This document shows positions 12,044 through 60,106 of a stretch of 64,000 nt of DNA, piece by piece (position 1 is the stretch's first letter; every line of letters begins with the position of its first letter). The DNA is taken from the NCBI GenBank assembly GCA_041497195.1, contig JBGQGB010000002.1:44140-108139 (forward strand), given 5' to 3'. The DNA is from Candidatus Doudnabacteria bacterium. Its GTDB lineage: Bacteria; Patescibacteriota; Doudnabacteria; UBA920; 2-01-FULL-46-14. A program made the position numbers and the translations under genes. The notes under the pieces were generated by a model, which was not told the DNA's origin, searched no databases, and was given only the letters and a program-made list of their open reading frames with translations.

Positions 12044-12044
12044 C

Positions 12045-13192: not shown

Positions 13193-14053
13193 ATGATCAA
13201 ACGCAAAGCTCAATACATTGGAATAGACATCGGCGGGTCAAAAATTGACAGTATTCTGTGGGAGAACGGACGTACTACCCGCAACCTCAAAAGCCGCACG
13301 CCCAAGTCGCGCCGGAAATTTTTGGCGTGCGTCTTGGATTTGGTCAAAGAACTCTCTATCGGAAAAAACGTCGCCGGCGTCGGAGTCTCGGTGGCCGGCG
13401 CGATCAATTTGAAACAAGGAAAAATTCTTCGGAGCCCCAACCTGCGATTTTTGAAAAATTTCGGGATGCGAAGCTGGCTTCACAGCCGGACTAAAAAGCC
13501 GGTTCGCGTGGATAATGACGCCAAAGCTTTTTTGCGCGCGGAAATGGTTTTTGGCGCGGCGCGTGGGAAAGCAAGGGTAGTGGCACTCACTCTCGGCACT
13601 GGCGTCGGAGGAGCGGTCGCAATCAATGGCCAAATTTTGCGAGGGGTGCACAATTCGGCTTTTGAACTGGGTCATATCATCATTGCTCAAAAAGGCGACA
13701 AAGCTTTGACCCTGGAGGATTTAGTGAGCAGTCGTGGGTTTTTTCGGCTCGGCGTGCGCCAGCCGTTGGACGCCCAGAATAAAGGCTTCGCCGGGGAGCG
13801 CCACAGTATCCGCGTATACGAAGAGATAGGAAAATATTTAGGCAGAGGGCTGGCCAGCCTGGTGAATATATTTGATCCGGATCTAATTGTTTTGGGCGGC
13901 GGGATTTCCAGAGCAGACTACCTTTTGCGGAGGCCTGCCTTAAAAGAGATGCGTAAATATGTTTTGTCGTCTCTAAAAGCTTTGCCGCATGTAGAAATTT
14001 CTAAATTGAAACACGCGGCTGCTCTGGGTGCTGTGAGTTTGTTCCTGTCTTGA
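13193..14053 (+). CDS. ROK family sugar kinase (glucokinase-like)
   Basis: IGIDIGGSKI phosphate-1 motif, DNDAKAF, and GTGVGGAVAING. Confidence 0.8.
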   Translation: MIKRKAQYIGIDIGGSKIDSILWENGRTTRNLKSRTPKSRRKFLACVLDLVKELSIGKNVAGVGVSVAGAINLKQGKILRSPNLRFLKNFGMRSWLHSRTKKPVRVDNDAKAFLRAEMVFGAARGKARVVALTLGTGVGGAVAINGQILRGVHNSAFELGHIIIAQKGDKALTLEDLVSSRGFFRLGVRQPLDAQNKGFAGERHSIRVYEEIGKYLGRGLASLVNIFDPDLIVLGGGISRADYLLRRPALKEMRKYVLSSLKALPHVEISKLKHAAALGAVSLFLS

Positions 14054-43459: not shown

Positions 43460-45352
43460 ATGGCTATATTCATTCGCAAAATCAAAAGTTTGAATACAAA
43501 AAAGGCTTTGGCGGTCGTCACCTTTGCCGGCCTGATTTCGTTTTTAGTGAGTTCTCCTCTGGCTTCGGCCGACGGCCCGCAGTTTAATATTTTTCCAATT
43601 TCTTATACTGGCGAGCTCAATCACGACTTGCCGCTTTTGGACGGCCGCGACGTCACTCTGGGACAGGGATGGAGTGTTTCGCAGGCCGACCACGACAGCC
43701 GCATCAATGCCAATCCCGGAGACGTTCTCCAATTTTCAGTTTATTACCACAACGGCATGCCGGATGCGGATAGCAACGTGGCGCTCAACGCCGTGGTCCA
43801 GGCTTTTGTGTCTCCCTCTTTGGGCAGCACGGCCAATACTTTTTCAGTTTCCGCCACGATAGGCGCGCAGAATGCCGCCACTGTTTCCAGTGCGGACGCC
43901 AGCCGCGGCGGCAATATCGCCATCCATGTTTCGGGTACGCAGGCGCAGAGTCTCAGTCTGGTGCCGGGCAGTGTCACGTGGTTTCCGCTGCAGGGCTCGA
44001 CCCCACCCGGAACAGCGCAAACCCTTCCTGATACTATTTTCAGCAGCGGCGTTAGCATCGGCAATATCCGCGGGTGTTTCCAATACCACGGGTTTGTGAA
44101 CTTCAAAGTGCAGCTGACGCAGGTCCAACAGGGGAGTCTGCTGATTCAGAAAAATGTGCGCAACCTCAGTCAGGGATTGGGGGCGCTGGCGCCATTTGAT
44201 CCCAATCAGGTCAGTGCCAATCCGGGCGACACCGTGGAGTATCAGATTTTGGTCTCGGCCCAGAACAATGCCGTCCAGAGCGTGTCGGTCAAAGACGCGC
44301 TCGATCCGAAACTGACCCTCACCGGCAGTGTCACCCTCGACGGCAGTCCGATTGATACGCTCGGTTTTTTCAATTCCGGCGATAATATCGGCACGGTGAA
44401 CGTAGGCTCCAATCGTGAAATCAAATTCAAAGCAGTTGTCGCCGCGAAATCGCAATTCACTGTCGGTACGTTTATTCTGTCAAATACGGCGTATACTTTC
44501 AGCTCCAACTCGTCCGCGCAAGATAGCGCCAACGTTCAGGTGGTCATCCAGCCGCAGCAAATTGCCTGCACTTTTACGTGGGATGCGCCGCTGACGACCG
44601 ACGGCACCCAGCGCGGCTCGCGTCACGTGGGCGACCAATTTAACGTGCAGCAACAAGTGACCGGTCTGAATCCGAGCCAGTCGTTTAATATTGATTTTCA
44701 GCACGTTTCCGGTTCACCTGTTTTCAAGTCGCTGCAGAGCGCCGATGCCTCGGGCAATTTCAATCGCAAAGAAACCAGCACGATATCCGCCAGTTATACT
44801 CCCGGCGACTACCTCGCTTTCATCGAGCTGAATGGAGTAAATGTCGCGTCTTGCACGGGCATGCGCGTGGAGCTCCCGTCAGTTCAGCAAATCAGCCTGA
44901 CTAAATTGGTGCGCGACGACAACGCCGGCGGAGCTTTCACTACCCAAGTCAGTGCGCAGCCGTCGGACCTGGTCAGTTTCCAGCTGACGATCAATCCCCA
45001 GAGCAGCAACACGACTTTGCAAAACGTCACAATAAAGGATACCTTGCCGGCCAAACTCACTTTCAACACCGGCACCCTGAATGTCAACGGCACCCCCCAG
45101 TCAGTGGGGAACTTTTTCACCACCGGGCTCAATCTCGGAACTGTCCAGCCGAATCAGCAAATCGTGGTGACCTTCCAGACGACTGTGGCAAATGCCACCA
45201 ATTTCACGGCCGGGAGTTGTGAAATTTTGACAAACTTTTCCACCGTGACTGCCGATGGAGGCTTGTCCTCTTCGTCTTCGGCCAATGTCCAGGTTTGCAA
45301 GCAGGCGCCTGTGAAACAGCCGGGCCAGCCCGCGCCGCGACCTCTACAATAA
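43460..45352 (+). CDS. Large secreted DUF11 (conserved-repeat-domain) surface protein, with no C-terminal anchor
   Basis: Signal peptide. DUF11-type segments (ANPGDTVEYQILVSAQNNAVQSVSVKDALDPKLTLTGSVTLDG). Confidence 0.6.
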   Translation: MAIFIRKIKSLNTKKALAVVTFAGLISFLVSSPLASADGPQFNIFPISYTGELNHDLPLLDGRDVTLGQGWSVSQADHDSRINANPGDVLQFSVYYHNGMPDADSNVALNAVVQAFVSPSLGSTANTFSVSATIGAQNAATVSSADASRGGNIAIHVSGTQAQSLSLVPGSVTWFPLQGSTPPGTAQTLPDTIFSSGVSIGNIRGCFQYHGFVNFKVQLTQVQQGSLLIQKNVRNLSQGLGALAPFDPNQVSANPGDTVEYQILVSAQNNAVQSVSVKDALDPKLTLTGSVTLDGSPIDTLGFFNSGDNIGTVNVGSNREIKFKAVVAAKSQFTVGTFILSNTAYTFSSNSSAQDSANVQVVIQPQQIACTFTWDAPLTTDGTQRGSRHVGDQFNVQQQVTGLNPSQSFNIDFQHVSGSPVFKSLQSADASGNFNRKETSTISASYTPGDYLAFIELNGVNVASCTGMRVELPSVQQISLTKLVRDDNAGGAFTTQVSAQPSDLVSFQLTINPQSSNTTLQNVTIKDTLPAKLTFNTGTLNVNGTPQSVGNFFTTGLNLGTVQPNQQIVVTFQTTVANATNFTAGSCEILTNFSTVTADGGLSSSSSANVQVCKQAPVKQPGQPAPRPLQ

Positions 45353-45373
45353 CCCCTTGATTTTAGGAGCAAT

Positions 45374-46957
45374 ATGATCAGAACAGGACCTGTCATAAAA
45401 CTCAAAACTTTTTTATTGGCGACCCCAGTGGTGGTCGTCGGGCTTTTGGGCTTGGTCCCCGTGGCGCAGGCGGCCCCGGCTTTCAACGCTTTCCCGATCA
45501 GCTATACGCCGCAAACCAATATGGATTTGCCCATGATCGACGCCCGCAACGTCACCCAGAGCGGATCTTTCAGTACTTCCCAAGCTGACCATGATTCGGG
45601 CGTTTCCGCCAATCCCGGAGACGTCATCGAATTTGAAATTTACTATCACAACGCCGCCGTGGCCGAGGATGCCGCCACCAATGTCCTCATCAAGGCCTCC
45701 CTGCCCGGCGGGACCAGGCAGTCGCACGAGGCTTCCGCCACTATCAGTTCGGACCAGACGGCGACAGTCAGTAGCACTGACGCCTTCCGTGGCGGCAATA
45801 TTTTCATCAATATCAACGGCTCAGCGCAGACCCTGACCTTCATGCCCGGCTCGGTGCAATGGTTTCCCCAGCGATCTTCGACCGCCAGCTCTTTGTCCAA
45901 CTCGGACAATCTCCTGGGGAGCGGGGTCAATATCGGCACAGTCCAGGGTTGTTTCAATTTTTCCGGGTTTCTCACTTTTCAGGCGCAGGTGGGCAATCAA
46001 ACTACTACCACCACAACTCAAAATCAGAATTTGTCCATTTCCAAACAGGTTTTGAACGTGACTCGCGGGGACAACAATTACAACCAGTCCACCACAGCCA
46101 ATCCCGGCGATCGAGTCAGATTTCGCGTCTCTTTCAATACTTCCGGCACTGGTTCGCAGACCAATGTGATTGTCCGGGATATCTTGCCGCCGCAGTTGAG
46201 CTATGTCTCAGGCACTCTGCAGCTGGACGGGTCAGCGGTCTCCAATCAATTTGATTTTTTTGGCGCTGGCCTGAACCTCGGCACGCAATTTGCGGGGAAT
46301 TCCCATACCCTGATTTTTGACGCCAACGTGGCCCAGGGGCAGGCTTTCAGCGGGAGTTCTTCTTTAATAAACACTGCCAACGTCCGCAGCGACCAGGTCT
46401 TCACTCATCAGGATCAGGTCACTGTTTCGGTGCAACAGGTGCAGGGAGTGGCGCAATCCAGCCTCCGTAAAACCGCTTTCAACGTGACCCAGGGAGTCGA
46501 CGCCACTATCCGGCCCGCCAACCCGGGCGACATCATCGCCTATTCTTTGTACTTTAAAAATACCGGCCAAACTGCCATCAGTGGGGCCGTTATCCAGGAT
46601 GATATTTCTGACGTGGAGCAGCTCTCGCAGGTCGTGGATCAGGGGGGTGCCACTTCATTGAACGGGTCCATTGTCTATGCCCCGGTTGACGTGCCGGCGG
46701 GCGTGGAAGTCAGCCGGACTTTTCAGGTCAAAGTAATGGCTGCCAATCTAATCCCGAGCAATTCCGATTTGGTCATGGATAATGTTTATGGCAACGAAGT
46801 GCGCATTTTGGTGAACCGGCCCCAGGTCCGCGGCGCCACCGTGCCGCCTCGCACGGGGCCTAACGAATGGTTCCCGGTGGTGCTTGCGTCTTTGGCGACA
46901 GCAGGATATGCTGTGCGTAGGAAGTTGAAATCCCGCGTAGCTGCGATCGCGAAGTAA
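45374..46957 (+). CDS. Secreted DUF11 surface protein, paralog of 43460..45352, with a C-terminal sorting-signal-like tail (VPPRTG, a hydrophobic stretch, then RRKLKSR)
   Basis: Shared N-terminal module (FPISYT...SQADHDS...ANPGDV...YYHN). DUF11-type segments. Tail at 46841-46954. Confidence 0.6.
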   Translation: MIRTGPVIKLKTFLLATPVVVVGLLGLVPVAQAAPAFNAFPISYTPQTNMDLPMIDARNVTQSGSFSTSQADHDSGVSANPGDVIEFEIYYHNAAVAEDAATNVLIKASLPGGTRQSHEASATISSDQTATVSSTDAFRGGNIFININGSAQTLTFMPGSVQWFPQRSSTASSLSNSDNLLGSGVNIGTVQGCFNFSGFLTFQAQVGNQTTTTTTQNQNLSISKQVLNVTRGDNNYNQSTTANPGDRVRFRVSFNTSGTGSQTNVIVRDILPPQLSYVSGTLQLDGSAVSNQFDFFGAGLNLGTQFAGNSHTLIFDANVAQGQAFSGSSSLINTANVRSDQVFTHQDQVTVSVQQVQGVAQSSLRKTAFNVTQGVDATIRPANPGDIIAYSLYFKNTGQTAISGAVIQDDISDVEQLSQVVDQGGATSLNGSIVYAPVDVPAGVEVSRTFQVKVMAANLIPSNSDLVMDNVYGNEVRILVNRPQVRGATVPPRTGPNEWFPVVLASLATAGYAVRRKLKSRVAAIAK

Positions 46958-47054: not shown

Positions 47055-48185
47055 ATGCTCAATCCGCAAACCATTGGCGATCTGGCACAGGCTTTTGAAT
47101 CCGCTCCGGGTGGTTTTTTGGTAGTTGACAGCGGGCGGCCGCGGTTTGCCGTTTTGACATTCGAGACTTATCAGAGTCTCAAGAGCGCTCCGGAAGTCCC
47201 ACAGCGCCTCAAACGCATCCTGGTCACCGGAGGCGCGGGGTATATCGGCTCCGTGACTGCGCGACTGCTCCGGCAGAATGGCTACGAGGTCATTATCTAC
47301 GACAATTTTTCCACCGGGCGGCGAGAAAACGTGAGCGGCTACAAAGTCATCGAGGGCGACCTGGCCGATCGCGCACTTTTGGACAAGGTTTTTCGCGAGG
47401 AGCAGATTGACGCGGTCATGCATTTTGCCGCCTTCATAGATGCCGGTGAATCGGTCCGGCAGCCGGATAACTATTTTCAAAACAACGTCGTCAACGGCCT
47501 CAACCTGCTGGACGCCATGGTCGCGCACAAAGTCGGCAAGCTGGTGTTTTCTTCCAGCGCCGCAGTATATGGAGATTCCGGAGAGCCGACCATAGCCGAG
47601 TCCTCCCCGTGCAGTCCCACCAATCCGTACGGTGACAGCAAACTCATTTTCGAAAAATTTTTGCGCTGGTACGGCTCCTCCTTCGGCCTTGATTCCGTGA
47701 GTCTGAGGTATTTCAACGCCGCTGGCGCGTGGCCGCAGGAGGGTTTGGGCTATGCCAACCGCGGCGGCGAATCACATTTGATTCCGCGAATTCTGGACGC
47801 GGCCATGGGCAAAATTCCCGAGATCGAAATTTACGGCCAGGATTATGCGACTCCGGACCGGACGTGCGTGCGCGACTATGTCCATGTTTTGGATTTGGCG
47901 GAAGCGCATCTTTTGGCTCTGAAAAAACTCCAGAAGGACACCGGGGTCCACGCGTACAATGTCGGCACCGGGCAGGGCCACTCGGTTCTGGAAGTGATCG
48001 AAAACGCCGTGGAGATAACCGGTCGGATGATTGCCATGAAATTTGGTTCACGCCGCCTGGGAGACCCGGCGAAACTGATTGCCAATAGCAGCAAACTGGG
48101 GCGCGAGTTTTCCTGGCGCCCGAAATACGGGCTCAAAGAAATCCTGGAAACATCCTGGGATTGGCACCAGCGAATCGGCAAATAG
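47055..48185 (+). CDS. galE: UDP-glucose 4-epimerase with a ~50-aa N-terminal Phd/YefM-antitoxin-like extension
   Basis: Rossmann motif RILVTGGAGYIGS, YGDSK (YxxxK). An in-frame N-terminal DLAQAFESAPGGFLVVDSGRPRFAVLTFETYQSL precedes it, with no alternative start codon. Confidence 0.75.
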   Translation: MLNPQTIGDLAQAFESAPGGFLVVDSGRPRFAVLTFETYQSLKSAPEVPQRLKRILVTGGAGYIGSVTARLLRQNGYEVIIYDNFSTGRRENVSGYKVIEGDLADRALLDKVFREEQIDAVMHFAAFIDAGESVRQPDNYFQNNVVNGLNLLDAMVAHKVGKLVFSSSAAVYGDSGEPTIAESSPCSPTNPYGDSKLIFEKFLRWYGSSFGLDSVSLRYFNAAGAWPQEGLGYANRGGESHLIPRILDAAMGKIPEIEIYGQDYATPDRTCVRDYVHVLDLAEAHLLALKKLQKDTGVHAYNVGTGQGHSVLEVIENAVEITGRMIAMKFGSRRLGDPAKLIANSSKLGREFSWRPKYGLKEILETSWDWHQRIGK

Positions 48186-48231
48186 CTAAGCCCTGCGGCT
48201 GTCAGGGCTTTTTGTTATACTAAAAAAAGCT

Positions 48232-49098
48232 ATGCCAATAAACATTTCACAAAAATCCGCCGGCGATTTTTCCCTGCCGGCCCTGGGCTTGGGGACGTGG
48301 CAAATGGGCAGGGGAGGCGATGAAGCGGATGTGGCCGCGATCCAGGAAGCGATCCGCCTGGGGATCACGCACATTGATACGGCTGAGGTGTATTCCGACG
48401 GGCACAGTGAAGAAGTCATCGGCCGCGCGATCAAAGATTTTGACCGGGCGAATTTATTTATCACCAGCAAGGTTCGCGCCAGGCATCTTCGCCAGGATGA
48501 CGCCATTGCTTCCGCCAAAGCCAGCTTGCGGCGGTTGGGCCTCGCATATCTGGACCTATACCTGATCCACGGGCCCAATCCGGAGATTCCGCTCAAGGAG
48601 ACGTTTCGCGTTCTTGATTTTTTGTTTGAGCAAGGGCTCATCCGCCATCTGGGTGTTTGCAATTTCGATCAGCCGTTTTTGGAAGAGGCAATGGCAGCGA
48701 CAAAATATAAAATCGTCAACCATCAGATTCATTTCAATTTGAGTGCCAGGGCGTATGCGCAAAACGGCGTCCTGGATTTTTGCGAAAAACACCAAATTTT
48801 AATTACGGCCTGCCGGCCGCTGGCTCACGGACAATTCGCCCAGCCAGGCCACCCGCTCCTCGACAGCATGGCGGCAAAATACGGCAAGACCCCGGCGCAG
48901 ATCGCGCTCAATTGGGTGATGGCTCACAGAAACGTCGTGACTATAGTGAAAACTGCCAATCTTGAGCATTTGCGAGAGAACCTTGGTTCGCTCGGCTGGC
49001 AATTGGACCAAGCGGACATTCAGAAATTGACCCAGCAATTTCCCGTCGGGGAAACAAAATACGTTGGGATAGCCCCGGACCACAAACCCACGGTTTAG
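48232..49098 (+). CDS. Aldo/keto reductase
   Basis: AKR pattern (GLGTWQMG, the D/Y/K/H tetrad region, LDLYLIHGP). Confidence 0.75.
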   Translation: MPINISQKSAGDFSLPALGLGTWQMGRGGDEADVAAIQEAIRLGITHIDTAEVYSDGHSEEVIGRAIKDFDRANLFITSKVRARHLRQDDAIASAKASLRRLGLAYLDLYLIHGPNPEIPLKETFRVLDFLFEQGLIRHLGVCNFDQPFLEEAMAATKYKIVNHQIHFNLSARAYAQNGVLDFCEKHQILITACRPLAHGQFAQPGHPLLDSMAAKYGKTPAQIALNWVMAHRNVVTIVKTANLEHLRENLGSLGWQLDQADIQKLTQQFPVGETKYVGIAPDHKPTV

Positions 49099-49151: not shown

Positions 49152-49904
49152 ATGGCTCGAAACATAAAATTATCAGTAGTGGTGCCAGCGTACAACGAGG
49201 GGAAGCGGATTGCGCAGACTTTGGAGGATATTGACCGCTACCTGGAGAGGCAAGGTTACGACTACGAGATTATTGTCGTCGATAACGGCAGTAAGGATAA
49301 TACCTGTGACGTCGTCAAAGAATATCAGGCCAAGGGCGTCAAAAACGTGGTCAGATTGTGTTTGTCCCAGAGTGTGGGCGCCAAAGGCAGTGCGGTCCGT
49401 CTCGGCATCGTGGATTATGCTCTGGGTGAGTACATCATGTTTATGGACGCGGACAATGCCACCCCGATTTCCGAGATAGAAAAATTCTGGCCGTATCTGG
49501 AGAATGGCCAATATCAGGTCGTCATCGGCTCCCGCTACGTGGCAGAGTCGGATGTGACCAAAAAACAGCCCCTTTACCGGATCGTCCTGAGCCGCCTGAG
49601 CAATATGCTCATCCAGCTTCTGGCGGTGCCGGGGATCAAAGACACCCAGCTCGGATTCAAGGCGTTTAGCCACGATGCGGCCAAAGACATTTTTGCCGCG
49701 GTGACAGTGCAGGGCTGGGGGTTTGACATGGAGGTTTTGACCATTGCCAAAACCCGCGGGTATAGAATCAAAGAAGTGGGCGTGCTCTGGCACGAGAGCG
49801 GCGGCAGCCACGTGCCCCTGACTGCGTATCTGCAAAGTTTGCGGGACCTCTTGAAAATTAAACTCAATTCCCTGGCGGGAAGATACGCAAAAAAAAGCAG
49901 ATGA
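49152..49904 (+). CDS. GT2 glycosyltransferase (Dpm1/GtrB-like polyprenyl-phosphate sugar transferase)
   Basis: LSVVVPAYNEGKRI and the DxD motif FMDADN. Confidence 0.75.
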   Translation: MARNIKLSVVVPAYNEGKRIAQTLEDIDRYLERQGYDYEIIVVDNGSKDNTCDVVKEYQAKGVKNVVRLCLSQSVGAKGSAVRLGIVDYALGEYIMFMDADNATPISEIEKFWPYLENGQYQVVIGSRYVAESDVTKKQPLYRIVLSRLSNMLIQLLAVPGIKDTQLGFKAFSHDAAKDIFAAVTVQGWGFDMEVLTIAKTRGYRIKEVGVLWHESGGSHVPLTAYLQSLRDLLKIKLNSLAGRYAKKSR

Positions 49905-51940
49905 AAAAATTCCTCACCACTTTCCTAATACTGGTGGTATTCTCTGGCTATTTTCCAGGGGCTACAAACTTTTCTCAGCCGGGAGTTTTAATAGTCAGGC
50001 TCCGTGCCGGCACGCCGCCGTCTTTTCTCGCACCTTTTTCCCATACTCAGGATCAACTGTTTGACAATGTCTACCGGCTCAGTGTGGCGGACACGGCGCG
50101 GGCTTTGCAGTCGCTGCGAGCTGACACGCACGTCGTTTACGCCGAGACCGACGGAGCAGTGAAAACCACAGTCAACGCGGCCGACCCTTTGTTTGTGTTG
50201 GATACCCAAGCTTTGTCCAAGCAGTGGTATTTGCCGAAGATTCTCGTTCATCAAGCTTGGCAGCAGACCGTGGGCATCGGGATTACCATTGCTGTAGTTG
50301 ATACCGGCATTGACGGCAAACACGAGGACCTAAGCGACGGCCGCGTCATCGGCGGCTATGCCAGCTATTGCCAAGCCATGAGCCAGTCGGTACCCAATGA
50401 TTGTTTGATCAAAGTGAACGGCGAACTCGCCCCCGGCGTCAACTCTGACGACAACGGTCACGGCACCATTGTGGCCGGTCTCATCGGCGCGATTGCCAAT
50501 AACAACAAAGGCATTGCCGGGATTGACTGGAATGTCAAACTGATGCCGATCAAAGCGCTGGATGCGAGCGGCTCCGGCCTCGCTTCGGACGTAGCCACCG
50601 GCATCAAGTGGGCTGCTGATCACGGGGCCAAGATTATCAATATGTCAGTGGGCGGGCAGGGCCTCGACGGCCTGCAAGTGTTGCAGGATGCCATCACTTA
50701 TGCCTACAACAAGGGCGTGCTGATCGTGGCGGCGGCCGGCAACGACGCAGCTGAGAATGGGGCGGATCTCAACAACAGTCCCGTACTGCCTGTATGCGCG
50801 GACGGGGGGCGGAATATGGTCATTGGCGTGGCCGCCGTGGACGTAGCGGATCAAAAAGCCAAGTTTTCCAACTACGGCTCCAACTGCATCGATATCTCGG
50901 CGCCCGGCACCGGCAATTTTATTGACAAGGAACACAAGCAGGGCGTTGTTTCGACGTATTATGATCCGACCAAACCGGGCGAGCAGGACCTCTACGTTTA
51001 CGCGGCTGGTACTTCGGTCTCGGCTCCGATCATTAGCGGGGTGGCGGGCCTGATGATGTCCGCCTTTCCGGACCTGGATGCGAACGCGATCCGCACCCGA
51101 CTCTTAAGCTCCGTTGATAACATTGATTTGCAAAATCAGTCCGGTTGCGGCAGCGGCAGTTGCGTGGGGCAGCTCGGCAGCGGCCGCATCAATGCGCTCA
51201 AAGCCGTGACTTTGGCCACCACTTTCAATTCCGGCTCTCTTGTTCGCGATCCGCAGGGAAACATATTTTTAATTGAACAGGGCCTGAAGCGGCCGGTGTC
51301 GTCGTACGTGCTGGCGCAGCGGTTTGCGGGTGTGGCAGTGGTCGCGGCTTCAGCCAACCAGCTCGACAGTTTTCCCATCGGCTCCGCCCTGCCGCCCACA
51401 GACGGCGGCATAGTGAAGGACCAGAGCAATCCGACTGTGTATTTGATCGACGCTGGCCAGCGGCGCGCCATGTCATACATCGCTTTCATTTCCCGCGGTT
51501 TGCACTTCGAAAACATCACTATTTTGACCTCGCCAGAAATCACTTCATACCCTCAGGGCGCAGACGCTGCCGTGGTCAACGGCGCGCTTCTCAAGTCTGC
51601 TGATTCGCCGGCAGTGTACATTTTGAACAGCAATACCCGCGAGCTCCTTTCGTATTTTGTGTTCAAGCAGCGGAATTTCCGAAATCAAGTCATCGGCGTG
51701 TTGCCCCTGGACCAGCTGGGCCAATACCCTTTGGATCCGAACGGATTTTTGTATCCGCCTCTGGACGGGACCCTGATCCGCGGCGATAGTGTGGCGACCG
51801 TGTATGTGATTCAGGGTAGTACGCGCCACGGCCTCTCGCTGCAGGCATTTCAGAGTCACAATTACCGGTTTGCGGACGTCAATGTCCTGCCGCAAAGCGA
51901 AGTGAGCGGCTATCAAGCTGGCCCTGATATTTTGAACTAA
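49901..51940 (+). CDS. Secreted subtilisin-like (S8) serine protease with four C-terminal ~55-aa tandem repeats
   Basis: Asp in VVDTGID, His in HGTIVAGLIG, Ser in GTSVSAPIISG. Signal peptide. Repeats of the form VYLIDAGQRRAMSY... Confidence 0.8.
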   Translation: MKKFLTTFLILVVFSGYFPGATNFSQPGVLIVRLRAGTPPSFLAPFSHTQDQLFDNVYRLSVADTARALQSLRADTHVVYAETDGAVKTTVNAADPLFVLDTQALSKQWYLPKILVHQAWQQTVGIGITIAVVDTGIDGKHEDLSDGRVIGGYASYCQAMSQSVPNDCLIKVNGELAPGVNSDDNGHGTIVAGLIGAIANNNKGIAGIDWNVKLMPIKALDASGSGLASDVATGIKWAADHGAKIINMSVGGQGLDGLQVLQDAITYAYNKGVLIVAAAGNDAAENGADLNNSPVLPVCADGGRNMVIGVAAVDVADQKAKFSNYGSNCIDISAPGTGNFIDKEHKQGVVSTYYDPTKPGEQDLYVYAAGTSVSAPIISGVAGLMMSAFPDLDANAIRTRLLSSVDNIDLQNQSGCGSGSCVGQLGSGRINALKAVTLATTFNSGSLVRDPQGNIFLIEQGLKRPVSSYVLAQRFAGVAVVAASANQLDSFPIGSALPPTDGGIVKDQSNPTVYLIDAGQRRAMSYIAFISRGLHFENITILTSPEITSYPQGADAAVVNGALLKSADSPAVYILNSNTRELLSYFVFKQRNFRNQVIGVLPLDQLGQYPLDPNGFLYPPLDGTLIRGDSVATVYVIQGSTRHGLSLQAFQSHNYRFADVNVLPQSEVSGYQAGPDILN

Positions 51941-51944
51941 TAAT

Positions 51945-53840
51945 ATGCGCGGCATCAAAACAAAAACTTTTGCTATTTTTTTGATTGGCCTTTTTCTATC
52001 CCAGCCTTTAGTGGCAGCTGCGGATGATGTTTTCAATCCCAGTCTGCTTATTGCGGACGAGCGGTTTTCTGATATCGGCACGCTCGGTGGGCCGGAAGGT
52101 ATCCAGAAATTCCTGGAAAGCAAAGGCAGTGTGCTCGGCAATACTTCTGCGGCGTTTTTGCAGAAATTACGCGAGCCCGGGGACCAGACGCTCAAAAGCC
52201 GTTTGCCAGACCCGCGCCCCAATCTCGGGCGGCTGCGCACTGCGGCTGAGCTCATCTATGACGCATCGACCTCGGCGGGTCTCAATCCCCAGGTCGTGCT
52301 CGTGACTTTGGAAAAAGAGCAGACCCTGATCGACGGCACCTTCAGCACGGATCAGAGTTTGCAGCGCGCCCTGGATCACGGATTGGGCTTTGGCTGCCCG
52401 GATGAGGGCGGCTGCAGCGACGTGTTCCTGGGGTTTTATTTCCAGCTCTTTGGCAATTTTGACTCGGGCGGCAACCGCTATATCGGCATGCCCATGTCCT
52501 TGATCCGCAGTTTCAACTACGAAGTCGGCGGCATCAGGGTGGGCCGCGGTCCGCTGGTGGATGCGAGTAATACCACTTTTGGCGGCGTACGGGTGCGCAC
52601 TGCCATAAAAGGCGACACTATCACCCTGGACAATACCCAAGGCCCTCCCAACAATGCCCAGCCCACGCAGGTGGTCACTCTGACCAATTTCGCCACTACA
52701 GCCCTCTATCGCTACACACCGCACGTGTATAATGGCAATTATAACTTTTACAAATTTTTCTCAGCCTGGTTCAAATATCCGGATGGGACTCTCATCCAAA
52801 CTTCCGGAGACCCGAGGATTTATGTGATTGACAGTGGCTTGCGCCGTCAGATTTCCCAGCTCGTTATCTCCCAGCGCGGGCTCAATCCCGCTAGTGTCAT
52901 CGCTTTGTCGAGTCTGGAATTTGCCGGCTTTTCCCTCGGTGATGTGATGGTGCCAAAAGAGGGGACAATACTCAAAAACTCAGCCGGCAAATATTATCTG
53001 ATAGAAAACCAGACTCGCAAACTCCTCTCTACCTTTGTGGCGACTCAGCGCAAGCTCAATCTCGCTACAGCTGTAGCAGTGCCTGATGACGAGCTCACTT
53101 CATACAAAGGCGGCGGGGTGGCTCTGCCCGCAGAAGGGACTCTGGTCAAATCCAGTGACAACCCCGCTGTCTATGTCATCACCAACAACCAAAAACGTCT
53201 GCTCTCTGCCTTTGTTTTCAAGCAGCGCAGTTATAAATTCGCTGATGTTTTGGCTGCTGCTCCGGGCGAGCTGGACTCATACCCGAGTGGCTCGGTGATG
53301 CCGCCTCTGGATGGCACACTGGTCAAGGCGAGTGAAGAGGCAGCAGTCTACTATGTCGGCAACGGGCAGCTGCAGCCCATGACGTTTTTCTCATTTACGC
53401 AAAACGGGTTCAAGTTCAAAGACGTCATAGCAGTGCCAAAAGCCGAGCTCATCGCCTGGCAAGTGGGCAAGCCCTTGCCGCCTCCCACTGGCCTGCTGGT
53501 CAAATCGCCGACAAGCCCTGGAGTGTACTATCTGGAGTCAGGCACCCGACGGCCAGTCTCATACGTGGTCTTTGTGTCGCGGCGGTTCGATTTCAAAAAA
53601 GTGATAGTGGCAGCTGACAGCGATATCGCGGCCATCGAGCTGGGGACACCTCTCGATCTGCCAAATTTGGCGCTGGTGAAAACTGCGGATAGTGGGACAG
53701 TGTATTATCTGGTGGATGGCACGCTGCGGCCGCTGACGCTGACTGCTTTCAAAAATCGCAGGCTTCTATTCAGCGACGTGGTGACCCTCAGTCCTGAGGA
53801 TTTCGCCAAATATCCCGTAGGAGCAGTGGTGCAGAATTGA
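51945..53840 (+). CDS. Secreted protein with an unknown N-terminal domain and six ~55-aa tandem repeats of the type found in the adjacent S8 protease
   Basis: Signal peptide. Repeat consensus DGTLVKxSDxPAVYxIxNGxKRxLxSxxVFxxRxFKFxDVxxVxxxELxxYPxG. Confidence 0.6.
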   Translation: MRGIKTKTFAIFLIGLFLSQPLVAAADDVFNPSLLIADERFSDIGTLGGPEGIQKFLESKGSVLGNTSAAFLQKLREPGDQTLKSRLPDPRPNLGRLRTAAELIYDASTSAGLNPQVVLVTLEKEQTLIDGTFSTDQSLQRALDHGLGFGCPDEGGCSDVFLGFYFQLFGNFDSGGNRYIGMPMSLIRSFNYEVGGIRVGRGPLVDASNTTFGGVRVRTAIKGDTITLDNTQGPPNNAQPTQVVTLTNFATTALYRYTPHVYNGNYNFYKFFSAWFKYPDGTLIQTSGDPRIYVIDSGLRRQISQLVISQRGLNPASVIALSSLEFAGFSLGDVMVPKEGTILKNSAGKYYLIENQTRKLLSTFVATQRKLNLATAVAVPDDELTSYKGGGVALPAEGTLVKSSDNPAVYVITNNQKRLLSAFVFKQRSYKFADVLAAAPGELDSYPSGSVMPPLDGTLVKASEEAAVYYVGNGQLQPMTFFSFTQNGFKFKDVIAVPKAELIAWQVGKPLPPPTGLLVKSPTSPGVYYLESGTRRPVSYVVFVSRRFDFKKVIVAADSDIAAIELGTPLDLPNLALVKTADSGTVYYLVDGTLRPLTLTAFKNRRLLFSDVVTLSPEDFAKYPVGAVVQN

Positions 53841-54093
53841 GGGATGATTACTTCAGCCCGATTCCCATCAGGCACCCCACCGAGCACGAACCGAGGATAA
53901 AGCCTCGCTTTTGGCCAGATAATTTCATATTCTTGACTCTAGTATAGCCTCCATGATACTATCTACACAGTAAGGGAGTGCTAAGAAATGGCGAGTTTAT
54001 TAGTCTGAATTGCTGTGAATCCCTTATTTGGAAATCGCTAAACCCACCGCCCTCTGGTTCGCCGGACGGCGGTTTTTAGTCTATAATTGTTAT

Positions 54094-54249
54094 ATGAAAA
54101 CGGCTATAGTTTTTATTGATGGAAATAATCTATATCACCGTATTAAAAGTGTGGCCGAGTTTTATTTGAGAGAAACGGGTAAAGAATACGGAACAATTAA
54201 TTTTGATTTCAAGAACTTTGGGATGGTATTTCCGTGTGACACCCAATAG
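54094..54249 (+). pseudogene. Remnant of a NYN/LabA-like domain gene (only the N-terminal 51 codons are intact) in an AT-rich patch
   Basis: MKTAIVFIDGNNLYHRIKSV matches the NYN N-terminal motif. The ORF stops at 54249. A further out-of-frame fragment follows at 54203..54406. Confidence 0.4.
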
Positions 54250-54477
54250 TATACGAATCCCGGGTAAAAGTCAATGGGAGGCGGTTTTGTCATCCGTTTT
54301 CTGTTTTAGCTTTTCTCGGGTGCCCAGCTGCTTATTTGAACGGGATAAAAAAACCGACCCCGCTTTCAAGGAAGCGTTGGACCAATTCGCGCGAATAGGC
54401 GAATAGCTTTGAGAGTGTTTTTTTCGGGGTCTACCTAGGTGACCGAAGCGTCAAGCCATTTGTGTTATAATTAGCCC

Positions 54478-55899
54478 ATGCTGCAAAGAATAGGGCGAAA
54501 CGTTTTTTCGCTGGGCATCTCAAGAATTATTTCCGGAATAATTCTTTTTGTTGTTTATACCCGGTTGGTGGCGTACCTGGGGCCGCACCAGTATGGCAAA
54601 TACGCTTTGGTGCTGGCGTACTATACGATTTTTACTTTGATCATGGATTTGGGCATTTCCAAATTCGTGACCAAAAAAGTCAGCGAAGAAAAAGCTGCGG
54701 CGAGTACTTACGTGGGCAATTATTTAATGCTGCAGCTTTTGATTTCCCTGGTGGTTTTCGGCGCCTGCGTCGTTATCCCGAAAATTTTCGGCTATGACCA
54801 GGACGTGGCGCGCTCGATGTTGCTCATTGGTATTGGCCTGGTGATTTATTCGGCCAGTCTGCCTTTCACGTCTGTTGTGCAGGCCTGGCAGCGCCTAGAC
54901 GTAGTGGCAGGCATCACTTTTGTGACCAGCCTCCTCAATTCCATCTGGCTGGCGCTGGCGATTTTTCTCAAGCAAGACGTGGTGTTTATTTTTTGGGTGT
55001 ATGTCGGAGTTGGCGCAGTCAATACTCTGTTTTACGTGTGGGCGTCGCGCAAGATGGCGCGGCCGCGCCTGGGCTGGCAAGGTAACATCATCAAAGAGTT
55101 GTTTGTGTTCGGGCCGCCGTTCGTACTGATTTCCGGATTTGAAGTGCTCATTCAGAAGGTTGATTCCATCATCCAGAAATTTTTTCTGCCCTTTGCCCAG
55201 ATCGGCCAGTACTCGGCCGCTTACCGCTTCCTCGATTTTTTGACCTTTATCCCGGCCGTGGTCGCCCTGACCATGTTTCCGTTTCTGGCGGAAGCGCGGG
55301 ACCTCAAACGCAGCGACATTGAGCCGATCCTGAGCCGGTTCAATCGCTACCTGATGGTTTTTGCCGTGCCCATCGGGGTCGGCGGGTCGGTGCTATCCAC
55401 CCGCCTCATCACTGCGCTGTTTGGCCGGGAGTATTTACCGGCCGCCTTGCCGTTTGCGATTTTGATTTGGGCCGCGGTCCTGACTTTTATTTACGCTGTC
55501 CCTAATGTCATCATGCTGGTCAAGCGGACGCGGCAAATGATCGCGGTTTTGGGCGTGACCACGCTGTTCAATGCGCTGGCTAACTGGTTTTTTATTCCCA
55601 TCTACGGTATTGTTGGTTCAGCCTGGATCACTGTCATTTCTTACGTTTTGGTGGCCGGCTGCTACATCTATCTGGCCCACCGCGAGTCGTATTTCAAACT
55701 GTTTCGCTACTTTTGGTGGCCAGTGGTAGCGTCCACTCTCATGGGTTTGGTGGCCACGCGTTTCAGTTTCCTGAATATTTTTGCTTTGGTGGGTTTGTCC
55801 GCCGCCGTATATTTTGTCATTCTGATCGCGGTCGGATTTTTGCAGAAAGAAGATTTGGTTTTTCTAGCCTCCATTTTTCGCAAGGAGCCGGGCGCATGA
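54478..55899 (+). CDS. wzx: Oligosaccharide flippase (Wzx / polysaccharide biosynthesis protein, MOP superfamily)
   Basis: About 12-14 TM helices with the typical Wzx architecture. Confidence 0.6.
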   Translation: MLQRIGRNVFSLGISRIISGIILFVVYTRLVAYLGPHQYGKYALVLAYYTIFTLIMDLGISKFVTKKVSEEKAAASTYVGNYLMLQLLISLVVFGACVVIPKIFGYDQDVARSMLLIGIGLVIYSASLPFTSVVQAWQRLDVVAGITFVTSLLNSIWLALAIFLKQDVVFIFWVYVGVGAVNTLFYVWASRKMARPRLGWQGNIIKELFVFGPPFVLISGFEVLIQKVDSIIQKFFLPFAQIGQYSAAYRFLDFLTFIPAVVALTMFPFLAEARDLKRSDIEPILSRFNRYLMVFAVPIGVGGSVLSTRLITALFGREYLPAALPFAILIWAAVLTFIYAVPNVIMLVKRTRQMIAVLGVTTLFNALANWFFIPIYGIVGSAWITVISYVLVAGCYIYLAHRESYFKLFRYFWWPVVASTLMGLVATRFSFLNIFALVGLSAAVYFVILIAVGFLQKEDLVFLASIFRKEPGA

Positions 55900-56771
55900 A
55901 ACTTTCAATTCTCATCGTCAGCTGGAATACCAAAGCGCTCACCCTCAAATGCGTGGAGTCGATTTTTGCCCATGCTCCCGATGCTTCGTATGAGGTCGTG
56001 ATTGTCGACAATGCGTCCGAGGACGGCAGTGCCGCCGCCCTCAGGGAGCGTTTCGGCCAATCTCCGAATTTGCAGATAATCGAATCGCCGGACAATCTCG
56101 GCTTCGCCCGGGGCAACAACCTCGCTTTCGCCCACTCGACCGGCGAGCTGGTTTTTTTGCTCAATCCGGATACGGAGATTCGGGAGGACGCGCTGCGGAA
56201 ACTGATGGAATATATGGAGGCGCATCCCCAGGTGGGCATCGTGGGCCCGCGCCTCCTCAATGCGGACGGCAGCCTGCAGCCCTCAGTGCGCCGCTTCCCG
56301 AGGCTTTGGTCTTCGTTACTGGTTTTTTCCGGACTGCACCGCCTGTTCCGGCCGTACCGGTATCTCATGGATGATTTTGATTATGCCAAAGAGCGGGAGG
56401 TGGAGCAGGTCATGGGCGCGGCTCTGCTGACCCGCCGCAGCATCATAGAAAACTTAGGATTTTTGGATGAGAAGTTTTGGTTGTGGTACGAAGAGGTCGA
56501 TTTTTGCAAACGCGTGCAGTCAGCCGGGTATCAGATTCGCTATTACCCCGGGGCTAGTGTGGTGCATTTGGGGGCGCAGAGTTTTTCGCAGCTTCAGGTT
56601 TACGCGCGCAAACGCACCGTGGCGAAGAGTCTCAAGTATTACTTTCGCAAAAACGGCAGTTTTTGGGACGTACTGATGATTGAACTCGCTATGCCGGTCG
56701 TGCTGTTTGCCGCCTGGCTCGTCGACCTCTCCCAGAAAATGTCTAGCTTCAGGAGCCACCCCCATGTTTAA
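55895..56771 (+). CDS. GT2 glycosyltransferase
   Basis: LSILIVSWNTKALTLKCVESI...VVIVDNASEDGS. ATGA start/stop overlap with wzx. Confidence 0.75.
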
Positions 56772-58188
56772 AAAAGCGTTCTTCCTCATGCTGGTTGTCG
56801 AAGCCGCGTCCCTGGCAGCATTCGTCTACCCGCAGCTCAGCGCGTTGGTATTTGCCGCAGCCGCAGTCGCTGCTTTTGTCATCGCTTTCAAAAATTTGGA
56901 GTGGGGGATTTACCTGCTGTTCGGCGAATTGTTTTTCGGCAGCCGCGGGCATCTGCTCGATTACAAAATCGGCCCCATGCTCATCTCCGTGCGCGAAGTG
57001 ATTTTTGTGGCGGTCTTTCTGGCGTGGGCATACGCTTTGCTGCGGCAAAAAGAATGGAATTACAAAACTTATTTGGCCAAATTTGGCTGGCAATATTGGC
57101 TGCTCCTGGCAGTGGTGTTCGCGGCTATTTTGCACGGCCTTCTTGCTCACAACGGCACTGGCAATGTGGTGGCTGACGCGACCGCTTATCTCTTTTTGGG
57201 CATTGTCCCCGCGGTCTGGAGCACTGTCAGGAGCCGGCAGCAGCTCGAAAATTTATTGCGAATTTTGGCCGCGGCTCTCATCGTCATAACCCTGAAGACC
57301 TTGTTGCTGTTCATCTGGTTCAGTTTCGCCCTGGGCGGAGTCGCCACCCTCTATCACTGGGTGTTGAGTCAGAACATCGGGGAAATCACAGGCGAGGTCG
57401 GTACGCCGTCGCGAGTGTTTCTGCCGAGCCAGTTTTACGCTCTGGTCGGCTTGTTTATTTTTGCGTTTGCTTCGGAGAAAAAAAATTGGTGGGTGATCGC
57501 TGCGGCGATACTGGCGGTGATTTTGAGCTTGTCGCGAAGCTTCTGGCTGGGCGGTATAGTGGCAGCAGCTTTTGCCGCAGGCGTTTTTTTGTTTTTCAAT
57601 CTACAGGAGTGGTGGAGATTCATGAAGCTGGGCGGGGTGATCGTTTTGATCGCTGTTTTGGAATTGGCAGGTTTGTTCGCGCTCACCAGGCTCGGCGGAG
57701 GGCAGCTCACGGGGACTATCAGCAATCGCATCAATGCTCCGAGTCAGGACGCGGCCGGGAGTGCGCGTCTGTTTTTGCTCCCGGAACTACTCCAGAATAT
57801 TCAAAAAGCGCCGCTGCTGGGCCAGGGCCTCGGCTATGAAGTCACCTACACCAGTTTTTTGCCTGACAAAATCACGCCCTCAAATCCGCAAGGGCAGATC
57901 ACGAATTACCGGTTTGAGTGGGGTTATCTGGATTTGTGGCTGAAACTCGGATTTTTGGGTTTGGTGGTTTATCTGTTGTTTATTGCGCGGATTTTTCAGC
58001 GCGGCTGGAAGTTGCTCGCCGCAGTCCCGTCGGCTTTTGGGCTGTCGCTTGGGTTTTTGTGCGGCCTGGTGGCAATGCTTATTCTCAATCTGACCACGCC
58101 TTATCTCAATCATCCGCTAGGGGTCGGGTTTTTGATTTTGGCCGGCGTGTTTTTTTCCGCAGACGCGGCGGAGGGCCGACCATCATGA
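56764..58188 (+). CDS. O-antigen ligase / Wzy-like polytopic membrane protein
   Basis: At least 10 TM helices plus a large periplasmic loop. Its position inside the glycan locus supports the call. Confidence 0.5.
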   Translation: MFKKAFFLMLVVEAASLAAFVYPQLSALVFAAAAVAAFVIAFKNLEWGIYLLFGELFFGSRGHLLDYKIGPMLISVREVIFVAVFLAWAYALLRQKEWNYKTYLAKFGWQYWLLLAVVFAAILHGLLAHNGTGNVVADATAYLFLGIVPAVWSTVRSRQQLENLLRILAAALIVITLKTLLLFIWFSFALGGVATLYHWVLSQNIGEITGEVGTPSRVFLPSQFYALVGLFIFAFASEKKNWWVIAAAILAVILSLSRSFWLGGIVAAAFAAGVFLFFNLQEWWRFMKLGGVIVLIAVLELAGLFALTRLGGGQLTGTISNRINAPSQDAAGSARLFLLPELLQNIQKAPLLGQGLGYEVTYTSFLPDKITPSNPQGQITNYRFEWGYLDLWLKLGFLGLVVYLLFIARIFQRGWKLLAAVPSAFGLSLGFLCGLVAMLILNLTTPYLNHPLGVGFLILAGVFFSADAAEGRPS

Positions 58189-59207
58189 AGCCGCTCGTCA
58201 GTATCGTCATCCAAAGCTACAACAGCAAACGGTACATTGAAAAATGCATGACCGGAGTGTTGCATCAAGATTACGCGAATGTGGAAACTTTGCTCATTAT
58301 CAACGGGTCCACGGACGGTTCGCTTGAATTCATAAAAAATCACTACGGCAAGCTGAAGAAGGTCCATATCTTGGAACCCGGGGAAAACTTGTTTTTCAGC
58401 CGCGGCAACAATTACGGGATCGAACACTCCGCGGGCAAGTACATTTTGGGCCTCAATCAGGATACGGTGATGGAGCCAAAGTTTGTCAGCCAGCTTGTCG
58501 CCGCACTCGAGGAGGACGCGAGTCTCGGCTCAGTGTCGGGCAAGCTCCTCCACTATGATTTCAATATTTACTCCAAGACAAAGATTTTGGACAGTACCGG
58601 GCTCGAGATGTTTAAAACCAGGCGCGTCATTGATCGGGGCCAGTGGGAACTCGACAAGGGCCAATACGACAAGGATACGGAAATTTTTGGCGCCTCGGGG
58701 GCCGCGGCCATGTACCGGCGCTCGGCTCTGGAAGAAACGAAAATTCCCAAAAAAAGCGGCGGATACGAATACTTTGATGAAGATTTTGGCGCATACAAAG
58801 AAGACGTAGATCTGTCCTGGCGCTTGCAGATTTACGGCTATCGATGCCGGTACATCCCCGGGGCCGTCCTCTATCACGGCCGTACTATCGGCCGGTCGTG
58901 GCCGACCCAGGTCATCAATTTTGTCATCAATCGGATGCGGCAGTCGCGCCAGATCCGGAAGCTGTCTTTCAAAAATCACTATCTGATGATGGTGAAAAAT
59001 GAAATACCCCGTTTGTTCTGGCGACAATTTCTGTATATCCTCGGCCGCGAGATTTTGCTTCTGATTTATACCGTGCTGTTTGAGCAGTTTCAGGTCTACG
59101 CGATAGGGGATTTTTTCAAACAGTTGCCCGAGGCTAAGCGCAAAAGACAGCTAATCATGCCTCATGCCAAAGCAGATTCTCAGCGATTGCGAAAAATTTT
59201 TCACTGA
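58185..59207 (+). CDS. GT2 glycosyltransferase
   Basis: VSIVIQSYNSKRYIEKCMTGVLHQ...LLIINGSTDGS. ATGA overlap with the upstream gene. Confidence 0.75.
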   Translation: MKPLVSIVIQSYNSKRYIEKCMTGVLHQDYANVETLLIINGSTDGSLEFIKNHYGKLKKVHILEPGENLFFSRGNNYGIEHSAGKYILGLNQDTVMEPKFVSQLVAALEEDASLGSVSGKLLHYDFNIYSKTKILDSTGLEMFKTRRVIDRGQWELDKGQYDKDTEIFGASGAAAMYRRSALEETKIPKKSGGYEYFDEDFGAYKEDVDLSWRLQIYGYRCRYIPGAVLYHGRTIGRSWPTQVINFVINRMRQSRQIRKLSFKNHYLMMVKNEIPRLFWRQFLYILGREILLLIYTVLFEQFQVYAIGDFFKQLPEAKRKRQLIMPHAKADSQRLRKIFH

Positions 59208-59218
59208 TACCTTGGAAT

Positions 59219-60094
59219 ATGGACCTATCCATCATCATCGTCAGCTACAATACCAAGGACAAACTGCAGATGACCCTGCAGTCCGTGTTTCAGTTTGCCC
59301 CTGTGGTATCTTATGAAGTCTTTGTGGTGGACAACAACAGCCAGGACGGGTCGGCGGAGATGGTTCGGACGTGGTTCCCGCAGGTCAAGCTGACCGTGAA
59401 TCGGAAGAATCTCGGTTTTGCCAAAGCCAACAACCAGGCTATCAAACAGTCAGCCGGGACATATCTTCTGCTTCTCAATTCGGACGTCGAGGTCGAAGCC
59501 GGGAGCTTTGACAAGACCGTGGAATACATGAATAATAATCCTACGGTAGGAATCTTGGGGTGCAGAGTCGTCAAGCCGGATGGGACGCTTGATCTGGCCT
59601 GTCGCAGAAGTTTTCCCACGCCGATGAACTCGCTTTATCTTTTCACCGGTTTGTCCGCGCTGTTCCCGAAAAGCCGGTTTGCTTCTTACAATCTGACCTA
59701 TTTGCCGGAAGACCAAATCGCGGAAGTAGACAGCGTGATGGGTGCTTTTTTGCTCATCAGGCGGGGGGCAGTAGATAAGGTCGGCACCTTAGATGAAGAT
59801 TTTTTCATGTACGGAGAGGACATTGACTGGTGCTACCGGGTGAAGATGGCCGGCTACAAAGTCATGTACGTGCCAATCACCAGGGTGGTTCATTACAAAG
59901 GTTCTTCGTCACGGAAGGCCTCCCGCAGGTCTTTGTATGAGTTTCATCGGGCCATGGTTTTGTTCTACGACAAACATTATCGCGGCAACTATAATTTTTT
60001 GGTGACCGCGTTCGTCCGGTTTGGCGTCTGGCTGAGATATGGCTTCAAAGTAATACAAAACAGCCTCCGGCGGGAAAAATACGTCAGCAAGTAG
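59219..60094 (+). CDS. GT2 glycosyltransferase
   Basis: LSIIIVSYNTKDKLQMTLQSV...VFVVDNNSQDGS. Confidence 0.75.
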   Translation: MDLSIIIVSYNTKDKLQMTLQSVFQFAPVVSYEVFVVDNNSQDGSAEMVRTWFPQVKLTVNRKNLGFAKANNQAIKQSAGTYLLLLNSDVEVEAGSFDKTVEYMNNNPTVGILGCRVVKPDGTLDLACRRSFPTPMNSLYLFTGLSALFPKSRFASYNLTYLPEDQIAEVDSVMGAFLLIRRGAVDKVGTLDEDFFMYGEDIDWCYRVKMAGYKVMYVPITRVVHYKGSSSRKASRRSLYEFHRAMVLFYDKHYRGNYNFLVTAFVRFGVWLRYGFKVIQNSLRREKYVSK

Positions 60095-60106
60095 TTAAAT
60101 TTTGAA

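Follow-up and report, generated by a model that had tools for sequence, protein, structure and literature searches.

What does a short repeat do when it is carried in tandem at the C-terminus of a secreted protease and, in the same form, by the product of the gene next to it? This question is raised by a 64-kb stretch of the genome of a Candidatus Doudnabacteria (Patescibacteria) bacterium (contig JBGQGB010000002.1, positions 44,140 to 108,139), henceforth termed the window, in whose own numbering positions are given. Here, a family 2 glycosyltransferase (GT2) gene is followed by the gene of a secreted S8 subtilase, which we call pA, and by the gene of a second secreted protein, pB. A first-pass annotation, made from the DNA sequence, had described a common module of ~55 residues on both proteins, with four C-terminal copies in the protease and six in its neighbor. 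It could not assign the module to a named wall-binding repeat and regarded it as a shared attachment device for the cell wall, an S-layer or a host surface. On the evidence of sequence profiles and a predicted structure, the repeat is homologous to R1–R4, the domains of the periplasmic EccB arm, EccB being a core component of mycobacterial type VII secretion systems (T7SSs), and is not a new fold. What is new here is the deployment of this EccB-type repeat, which occurs in tandem at the C-termini of secreted hydrolases and makes up a large family. Judging from these associations, we consider it probable, at roughly 0.6, that the arrays constitute a non-covalent cell-wall-binding module that co-localizes the protease and its neighbor, pA being a wall-associated subtilase and pB a wall-associated enzyme.

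The common origin of the repeats on the two proteins is apparent from hidden Markov models (HMMs) trained on one protein and applied to the other. An HMM built from the six pB repeats alone detects the four copies of pA (full-sequence E 1e-51), and one built from the four pA repeats alone detects the six of pB (E 3e-74), so that all ten copies described at first are recovered (Table 1). BLASTP alignment of pA with pB yields three staggered alignments (E 6e-36 to 5e-28), which together with the cross-trained HMMs upholds the periodicity on which the first-pass annotation had beforehand made its proposal depend. The spacing is regular, with 55–58 residues per copy and linkers of 3–6 residues. 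Pairwise identity across the ten copies is 13–42%, which argues for old duplications and not for low-complexity sequence. The repeat HMM detected no copy in any other open reading frame (ORF) of the 64-kb window.

The earlier difficulty in naming the repeat was borne out, as the Pfam models for LysM, SLH, SH3b, CWB2, PG_binding_1, choline-binding (CW_binding_1), SPOR and PASTA gave no match at E ≤ 1 in pA or pB. Neither Pfam-A (2025) nor NCBIfam 20 holds a family model for the repeat itself, and a profile of the ten repeats found no match among PDB sequences. pB was modeled with AlphaFold2 from an alignment of 40 orthologues, and the model is confident, with a predicted local distance difference test score (pLDDT) of 89.9. 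According to DSSP, all six repeats in this model have the same succession of secondary-structure elements, comprising four strands and two short helices, mostly at pLDDT values above 90. A Foldseek search of the model against the PDB returned 11 matches at E ≤ 1e-3, all of them to EccB1, EccB3 or EccB5 (E 4.2e-8 to 1.2e-4, probability 0.99–1.00), while the first match outside EccB appeared at E 1.8e-3 with a probability of 0.21. The published EccB repeat unit comprises ~55 residues folded into a four-stranded sheet with two helices (PMC4769845), and its agreement with the pattern in the pB model supports the homology.

The broader repeat family connects to EccB at the sequence level as well. 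One family member (P0203), recovered by the ten-repeat profile of the window at E 3.4e-34, aligns its first repeat (residues 180–244) with positions 183–247 of the Pfam EccB family PF05108, which correspond to the EccB R2 region; the score of 61.4 bits exceeds the cutoff of 27. Of the 115 family members sampled, 8 give a PF05108 match, each on its repeats. A profile made from 101 diverse repeats ranks EccB1 R1 as the best match among PDB sequences over the whole repeat length, at an E-value of 0.07 that is not significant alone. The Foldseek matches, the PF05108 matches on repeats of family members and the EccB1 R1 profile match together form the basis for assigning the repeat to the EccB type. 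The HMM search of Pfam that the first-pass annotation had proposed thus leads to EccB by way of PF05108 in family members, and not to a family of the repeat's own. Nor does it end at a well-described domain family of known function, the role of the EccB repeat being itself hypothetical (PMC4769845). In the literature that we searched on EccB-like repeats and PF05108, we found no description of the module outside type VII secretion.

Two other candidate relationships of the repeat were rejected. A similarity to eIF1/SUI1 (E 0.8–1.4 with the ten-repeat profile) disappeared with the broader profile and was taken as chance. Membership in the family of PlyCB, the streptococcal phage lysin subunit, received a probability of 0.4% when the 101-repeat profile was aligned by hhalign with a PlyCB sequence identical to 4f87_A, and PlyCB is outside the top 50 Foldseek matches.

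How does the module in pA and pB relate to EccB as a whole? In EccB, the R1–R4 domains (PDB 4kk7, 3x3m, 5cyu, 6sgy, 7nps; Pfam PF05108) are units of the same kind, ~55 residues with four strands and two helices, and both the EccB repeats and those of pA and pB are extracytoplasmic. EccB is, however, inserted into the membrane by an N-terminal transmembrane helix, and its four repeats surround a central β-sheet core within a secretion machine, whereas pA and pB are soluble secreted proteins that carry the repeats as uninterrupted C-terminal arrays (four and six copies here, up to 16 elsewhere) without any core domain. We rejected an assignment of either protein as an EccB protein or T7SS component, given that they have a signal-like segment only, contiguous repeats, no core domain and no T7SS neighbors.

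To place the repeat in its wider context, the ten-repeat profile was searched against 1.84 billion representatives of 50% identity clusters. It matched 3,939 proteins at E ≤ 1e-3, of which 1,369 remain at E ≤ 1e-10. Among the best 146 of the 3,939, the array usually occupies the extreme C-terminus and comprises 3–16 copies. The source names of the carriers point to Actinomycetota and Doudnabacteria. Pfam scans of 115 of the best 146 carriers identified Peptidase_S8 in 26, SpoIID in 24, Amidase_2 in 22, Glucosaminidase in 3 and CHAP, NlpC/P60 and M23 in one each, in architectures such as Amidase_2–repeats–SpoIID, SpoIID–repeats, Glucosaminidase–repeats and CHAP–repeats. S8, SpoIID and Amidase_2 thus lead in the co-occurrence with other enzymes that the first-pass annotation had suggested examining. 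The idea of wall attachment gains independent support from these counts, since, S8 aside, the repeat is most often joined to domains of peptidoglycan hydrolases. Two carriers deserve separate mention: a protein of 1019 residues (P0206) fuses Amidase_2, Peptidase_S8 and repeats in one chain and ties the protease to wall hydrolysis, and one of 1423 residues (P0121) bears 16 copies, the largest array seen.

The module also occurs in phages. PHROG family 9616 (118 residues, function not annotated) matches the repeats, and proteins of 102–115 residues from Rhodococcus and Streptomyces phages, in their BFVD models, superpose on two repeats with a template modeling (TM) score of 0.85 and a root-mean-square deviation (rmsd) of 2.1 Å. 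In the Streptomyces phage LukeCage (locus L085, NC_048723.1, 6082–6390), gp67 is a ‘hypothetical’ protein of 102 residues made of two EccB-type repeats, and its gene lies between those of a minor tail protein of 2,003 residues and a holin. Homologues of gp67 are present in 64 Streptomyces phage records, and the protein could be a stand-alone wall-binding subunit. A tblastn search with pB against 50,697 phage records gave no match.

Of the two proteins in the window, pA is the more readily classified. It meets the definition of peptidase family S8 in its fold, the order of its Asp, His and Ser residues and its oxyanion Asn: D134 (VDTG), H187 (NGHGT), S372 (GTS) and N281 lie in their canonical motifs. 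Together with the PF00082 match (Table 1), this confirms the intact catalytic triad described earlier. The nearest solved relatives of pA are thermitase and subtilisins. An identity as a T7SS mycosin (MycP) was considered and rejected. The best NCBIfam match, TIGR03921, scores only 161.6 bits against a cutoff of 278.75, pA has no C-terminal hydrophobic segment, its closest solved relatives are not mycosins, and the resemblance amounts to generic S8 similarity.

pB presents a different picture. In keeping with the first-pass description of a secreted protein with an unassigned N-terminal domain, it has a signal-like segment and no Pfam or NCBIfam family match, and a profile of full-length pB retrieved no match from PDB sequences. 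The domain between signal peptide and repeats, hereafter the N-domain (~250 residues), is much the better conserved part of the protein, with a mean pairwise identity of 65% as opposed to 38% for the repeats. Its invariant residues include E125, Q126, C151, D153, C157, R178, Y255, R256, H260, N263 and N265. In a scan of one genome per species, relatives of the N-domain were found in 465 species genomes. One database entry is identical to pB, and the hundreds of full-length pB orthologues, all annotated as ‘hypothetical’, stem from Doudnabacteria and other Patescibacteria. Foldseek searches identified no fold relative of the N-domain in the PDB or BFVD. When the domain was modeled alone, the pLDDT was 72.2, worse than for the same region of the full-length model, and Foldseek again returned nothing significant from the PDB. 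The conservation, the invariant polar residues and the C151/C157 pair form the kind of pattern that characterizes enzymes or domains with a specific ligand rather than structural surface proteins. A lysozyme-like (GH73/GH23) reading is a guess prompted by two hints: the invariant E125 ends a helix spanning residues 115–126, and AtlE (4pia) appears among the Foldseek matches at a non-significant E of 6.4.

We surveyed the neighborhoods of 80 related loci, 69 of which have enough flanking sequence to score the S8 gene. In 64 of these 69 species genomes, the pB homologue is immediately preceded by an S8 gene. Ahead of the S8 gene, a GT2 gene is present in 58 of 64 cases and an epimerase gene, encoded further upstream in the window, in 38 of 55. 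The GT2/S8 overlap is kept in relatives only 45–48% identical. Repeats are detectable in all S8 orthologues (two to four copies), and pB orthologues have three to seven, nearly all of them five to seven. From this pairing, it seems that the site of action is common to the protease and pB. Genes downstream of the trio are less constant. In relatives at 45–48% identity (L001 and L003, positions 9800–13900), pairs of ABC-2-type exporter genes take the place of the downstream genes of the window, which encode a Wzx/Wzy region. The downstream envelope-polysaccharide genes have thus been swapped between lineages while GT2, S8 and pB remained fixed. No T7SS genes were found near the locus, either in the window or in the compared relatives, and its neighbors are envelope-sugar genes.

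C-terminal tandem arrays, secretion, a predominance of fusions to peptidoglycan hydrolases and presence in phages are the usual signature of wall-binding modules, and it is on this combination that the proposed role rests. The arrays of pA and pB would act as multivalent, non-covalent wall binders. Their ligand might be peptidoglycan; alternatively, it might be a wall glycopolymer such as the flanking sugar-metabolism and export genes would produce. The glycopolymer is a candidate because the locus lies among genes for sugar-nucleotide enzymes, glycosyltransferases and exporters. The shared anchor would bring pA and pB into the same wall compartment, where pA would serve as a wall-associated subtilase, following a logic like that of Bacillus WprA or Clostridioides difficile Cwp84, and pB as a wall-associated enzyme whose N-domain acts on a wall component. 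More speculatively, pA might process, mature or turn over pB, and perhaps other wall-bound proteins, by virtue of the common anchor. The attachment module suggested by the first-pass annotation is supported by these data and sharpened to an EccB-type repeat with peptidoglycan hydrolase partners.

Several observations weigh against this proposal. The module is not confined to wall hydrolases, as about a quarter of the carriers are proteases and others have Ig-like, PKD, PA14, nuclease or CAP domains. Six lineages have a pB homologue and no S8 neighbor, with four to eight repeats, and seven or eight in five of the six. pA and pB themselves give no PF05108 match at E ≤ 1, and the sequence link to EccB is transitive, via family members. 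Global superposition on EccB is poor (TM-score 0.10–0.17, rmsd ~32 Å), so that the likeness holds for the units and not for their arrangement. Such low scores are expected if the units are arranged differently, like beads on a string. Binding to the wall is a proposed property of the repeats of pA and pB and a more tentative one of those of EccB, for which the authors of the EccB1 structure state that data on peptidoglycan binding are lacking (PMC4769845). Cleavage of pB by pA is likewise conjectural.

Could the repeats instead bind one another? As a protein–protein scaffold, after the model of EccB, whose repeats pack together and make up the periplasmic assembly of ESX systems, arrays that interact or self-assemble would hold protease and partner in a complex or build a surface lattice. 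EccB1, EccB3 and EccB5, the only solved homologues, do use their repeat domains in packing within and between subunits (PMC4769845; 7nps, 7np7), and the two genes are nearly always adjacent, with the repeat always on both products. The core domain that organizes this packing in EccB is, however, absent from pA and pB, and a copy number that varies freely from 3 to 16 is a poor fit to a defined complex. Moreover, most carriers have the array on a single catalytic peptidoglycan hydrolase domain, which is the usual layout for wall targeting, and the six lineages mentioned above keep pB without the protease. We hence regard a scaffold as unlikely. Still more readily dismissed is the notion that the repeat is a diverged member of one of the named wall-binding families queried above, or that its periodicity is an artefact, for which we see hardly any chance. 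The cross-trained HMMs argue against an artefact. As to the named families, in addition to their failure to match pA or pB, none is among the top families in the Pfam scan of the 115 carriers. The EccB matches stand out from the next Foldseek match, and beyond them Foldseek gave only weak hemopexin and β-propeller matches (E > 1e-3, probability < 0.3).

A further alternative concerns whose surface is bound. Doudnabacteria, like other candidate-phyla-radiation bacteria, are thought to be attached to host cells. The repeats might thus recognize the surface of a host cell in place of the bacterium's own wall, with the S8 protease and pB as factors of attack or attachment aimed at the host envelope. 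The confinement of the pair to Patescibacteria genomes and its position among genes for surface proteins and envelope polysaccharides are consistent with such a function, and the presence of the module in actinobacterial phages indicates that it is able to recognize a foreign envelope, namely that of a host. On the other hand, the same module is found on SpoIID/LytB-type and amidase proteins of Actinomycetota, which are ordinarily housekeeping wall remodelers. We therefore give the host-directed function a small share of the probability. It would leave the class of ligand, a wall polymer, unchanged and differs from binding to the cell's own wall only in the identity of that wall.

The proposal of an own-wall anchor finds parallels in systems already characterized. 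In Clostridioides difficile, Cwp84 and SlpA carry the same wall-binding CWB2 repeats, whose ligand is a wall glycopolymer specified by adjacent genes, and Cwp84 processes SlpA. The likeness to pA and pB lies in a secreted protease and a neighboring surface-protein substrate that bear the same wall-binding repeats, next to wall-glycopolymer genes. The CWB2 fold (PF04122) is unlike the pA and pB repeats, however, Cwp84 is a cysteine protease whereas pA belongs to S8, and the substrate relationship is proven for Cwp84 and SlpA but a conjecture for pA and pB. Bacillus subtilis WprA is a secreted, wall-retained S8 protease on which the stability of autolysins and other wall-bound proteins depends. 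It resembles pA as a secreted subtilase retained at the wall, a property that is proposed in the case of pA, yet it lacks EccB-type repeats and differs in its mechanism of retention. PlyCB (PDB 4f87), a subunit of the streptococcal phage lysin PlyC, attaches to a wall polysaccharide by binding its polyrhamnose backbone (bioRxiv 10.1101/2021.03.19.436156). It exemplifies how a wall hydrolase can be brought to the wall by a small domain and, as a stand-alone subunit, is comparable to the two-repeat proteins of actinophages. PlyCB gains avidity from an octameric ring, whereas the arrays of pA and pB would gain it from tandem copies in one chain.

The features of the locus are compiled in Table 1; the ORFs of pA and pB lie at the positions given by the first-pass annotation. 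In agreement with the coupling and the 4-nt spacing that it described, the GT2 stop and the pA start share the sequence ATGA (49901–49904), and four bases (51941–51944) separate the pA stop from the pB start codon. In both proteins, a single hydrophobic, signal-like segment is found at the N-terminus and no further segment resembles a membrane span; both are Sec-type secreted proteins. Two terminator-like hairpins flank the aldo/keto reductase, GT2, S8 and pB genes, which is positional evidence only: in promoter and terminator scans of the region, the numbers of sites did not exceed shuffle expectation, and the hairpins rest on their position. Downstream of pB, the forward strand (54478–61360) encodes a Wzx flippase, a GT2 protein, Wzy_C, two further GT2 proteins and an S41 (CtpA-like) protease.

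Table 1. Coordinates of genes, domains, repeats and hairpins at the GT2–S8–pB locus (window positions; i-E, independent E-value).
Feature	Position	Strand	Residues	Remarks
GalE-like epimerase gene (upstream context)	47055-48185	+		Pfam Epimerase 2.4e-58
Terminator-like hairpin between epimerase and aldo/keto reductase genes	48188-48210			consensus scan
Aldo/keto reductase gene (upstream context)	48232-49098	+		Pfam Aldo_ket_red 2.6e-59
GT2 glycosyltransferase gene	49152..49904	+	250 aa	Pfam Glycos_transf_2 E 4.1e-30
pA, secreted S8 subtilase	49901..51940	+	679 aa	signal peptide, putative propeptide, catalytic domain, four repeats
pA S8 catalytic domain	50273..51145	+	125-415	Pfam PF00082, 175.5 bits, E 1.9e-51
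pA repeat 1	51227..51391	+	443-497	most divergent copy; i-E 1.5e-10, pB-only HMM
pA repeat 2	51401..51568	+	501-556	i-E 1.2e-16, pB-only HMM
pA repeat 3	51578..51745	+	560-615	i-E 1.7e-16, pB-only HMM
pA repeat 4	51764..51931	+	622-677	i-E 5.5e-13, pB-only HMM
pB, secreted protein	51945..53840	+	631 aa	signal peptide, conserved N-domain, six repeats
pB N-domain	52023..52781	+	27-279	invariant columns from 40-sequence alignment
pB repeat 1	52782..52949	+	280-335	i-E 3.3e-12, pA-only HMM
pB repeat 2	52959..53123	+	339-393	i-E 7.8e-11, pA-only HMM
pB repeat 3	53133..53300	+	397-452	nearest to consensus; i-E 1.8e-21, pA-only HMM
pB repeat 4	53310..53477	+	456-511	i-E 3.2e-12, pA-only HMM
pB repeat 5	53487..53654	+	515-570	i-E 4.6e-15, pA-only HMM
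pB repeat 6	53664..53831	+	574-629	i-E 3.7e-11, pA-only HMM
Terminator-like hairpin followed by T-run	54059..54072	+		consensus scan; ~220 nt past pB stop; possible operon end

Some additional features of the surroundings were noted. Just upstream of the locus, the interval 43460–46957 (+) encodes two secreted surface proteins with DUF11 repeats (Pfam DUF11). The second of them (45374–46957) ends in PPRTG, a hydrophobic stretch and the basic tail RRKLKSR, resembling a sortase-type cell-wall sorting signal. Relatives encode large unannotated proteins at the same position. The ORF of the GalE-like epimerase spans 376 residues, with the Pfam Epimerase match starting from residue 55, while orthologues have 337–339 residues. 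The extra N-terminal ~45 residues (…RPRFAVLTFETYQSL…) may reflect a mis-called start or a fused small domain. The 640-nt gap 3′ of pB (53841–54477) contains, in addition to the terminator-like hairpin, a 51-codon ORF (54094–54249, +) starting with MKTAIVFIDGNNLYHRIK. It resembles the N-terminus of a NYN/LabA-like domain and may be a gene remnant.

The sites at which autolysins, proteases and phage lysins act are set by cell-wall-binding modules, which also find use in engineered lysins. With the EccB-type repeat recognized on so many carriers, a large share of the ‘hypothetical’ secreted proteins of candidate-phyla-radiation bacteria and actinobacteria gain an annotation that can be tested. 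In Patescibacteria, the analysis identifies a conserved GT2–S8–pB operon, the third gene of which encodes a domain that is strongly conserved and for which no relative of known function was detected. For ESX systems, the partner-domain statistics provide comparative support for the unproven idea that EccB touches the wall. More tentatively, and as a possibility that we would not yet favor, the EccB-type repeat might be a general, as yet unnamed wall-binding module of Patescibacteria, Actinomycetota and actinophages. The EccB arm would then tether the secretion machine to the wall, and the conserved N-domain of pB would be a wall-active enzyme of a new class, either cooperating with its co-anchored S8 neighbor or matured by it. 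If this is true, the periplasmic arm of EccB consists of wall-binding units, and a question that has stood since the EccB1 structures would be settled.

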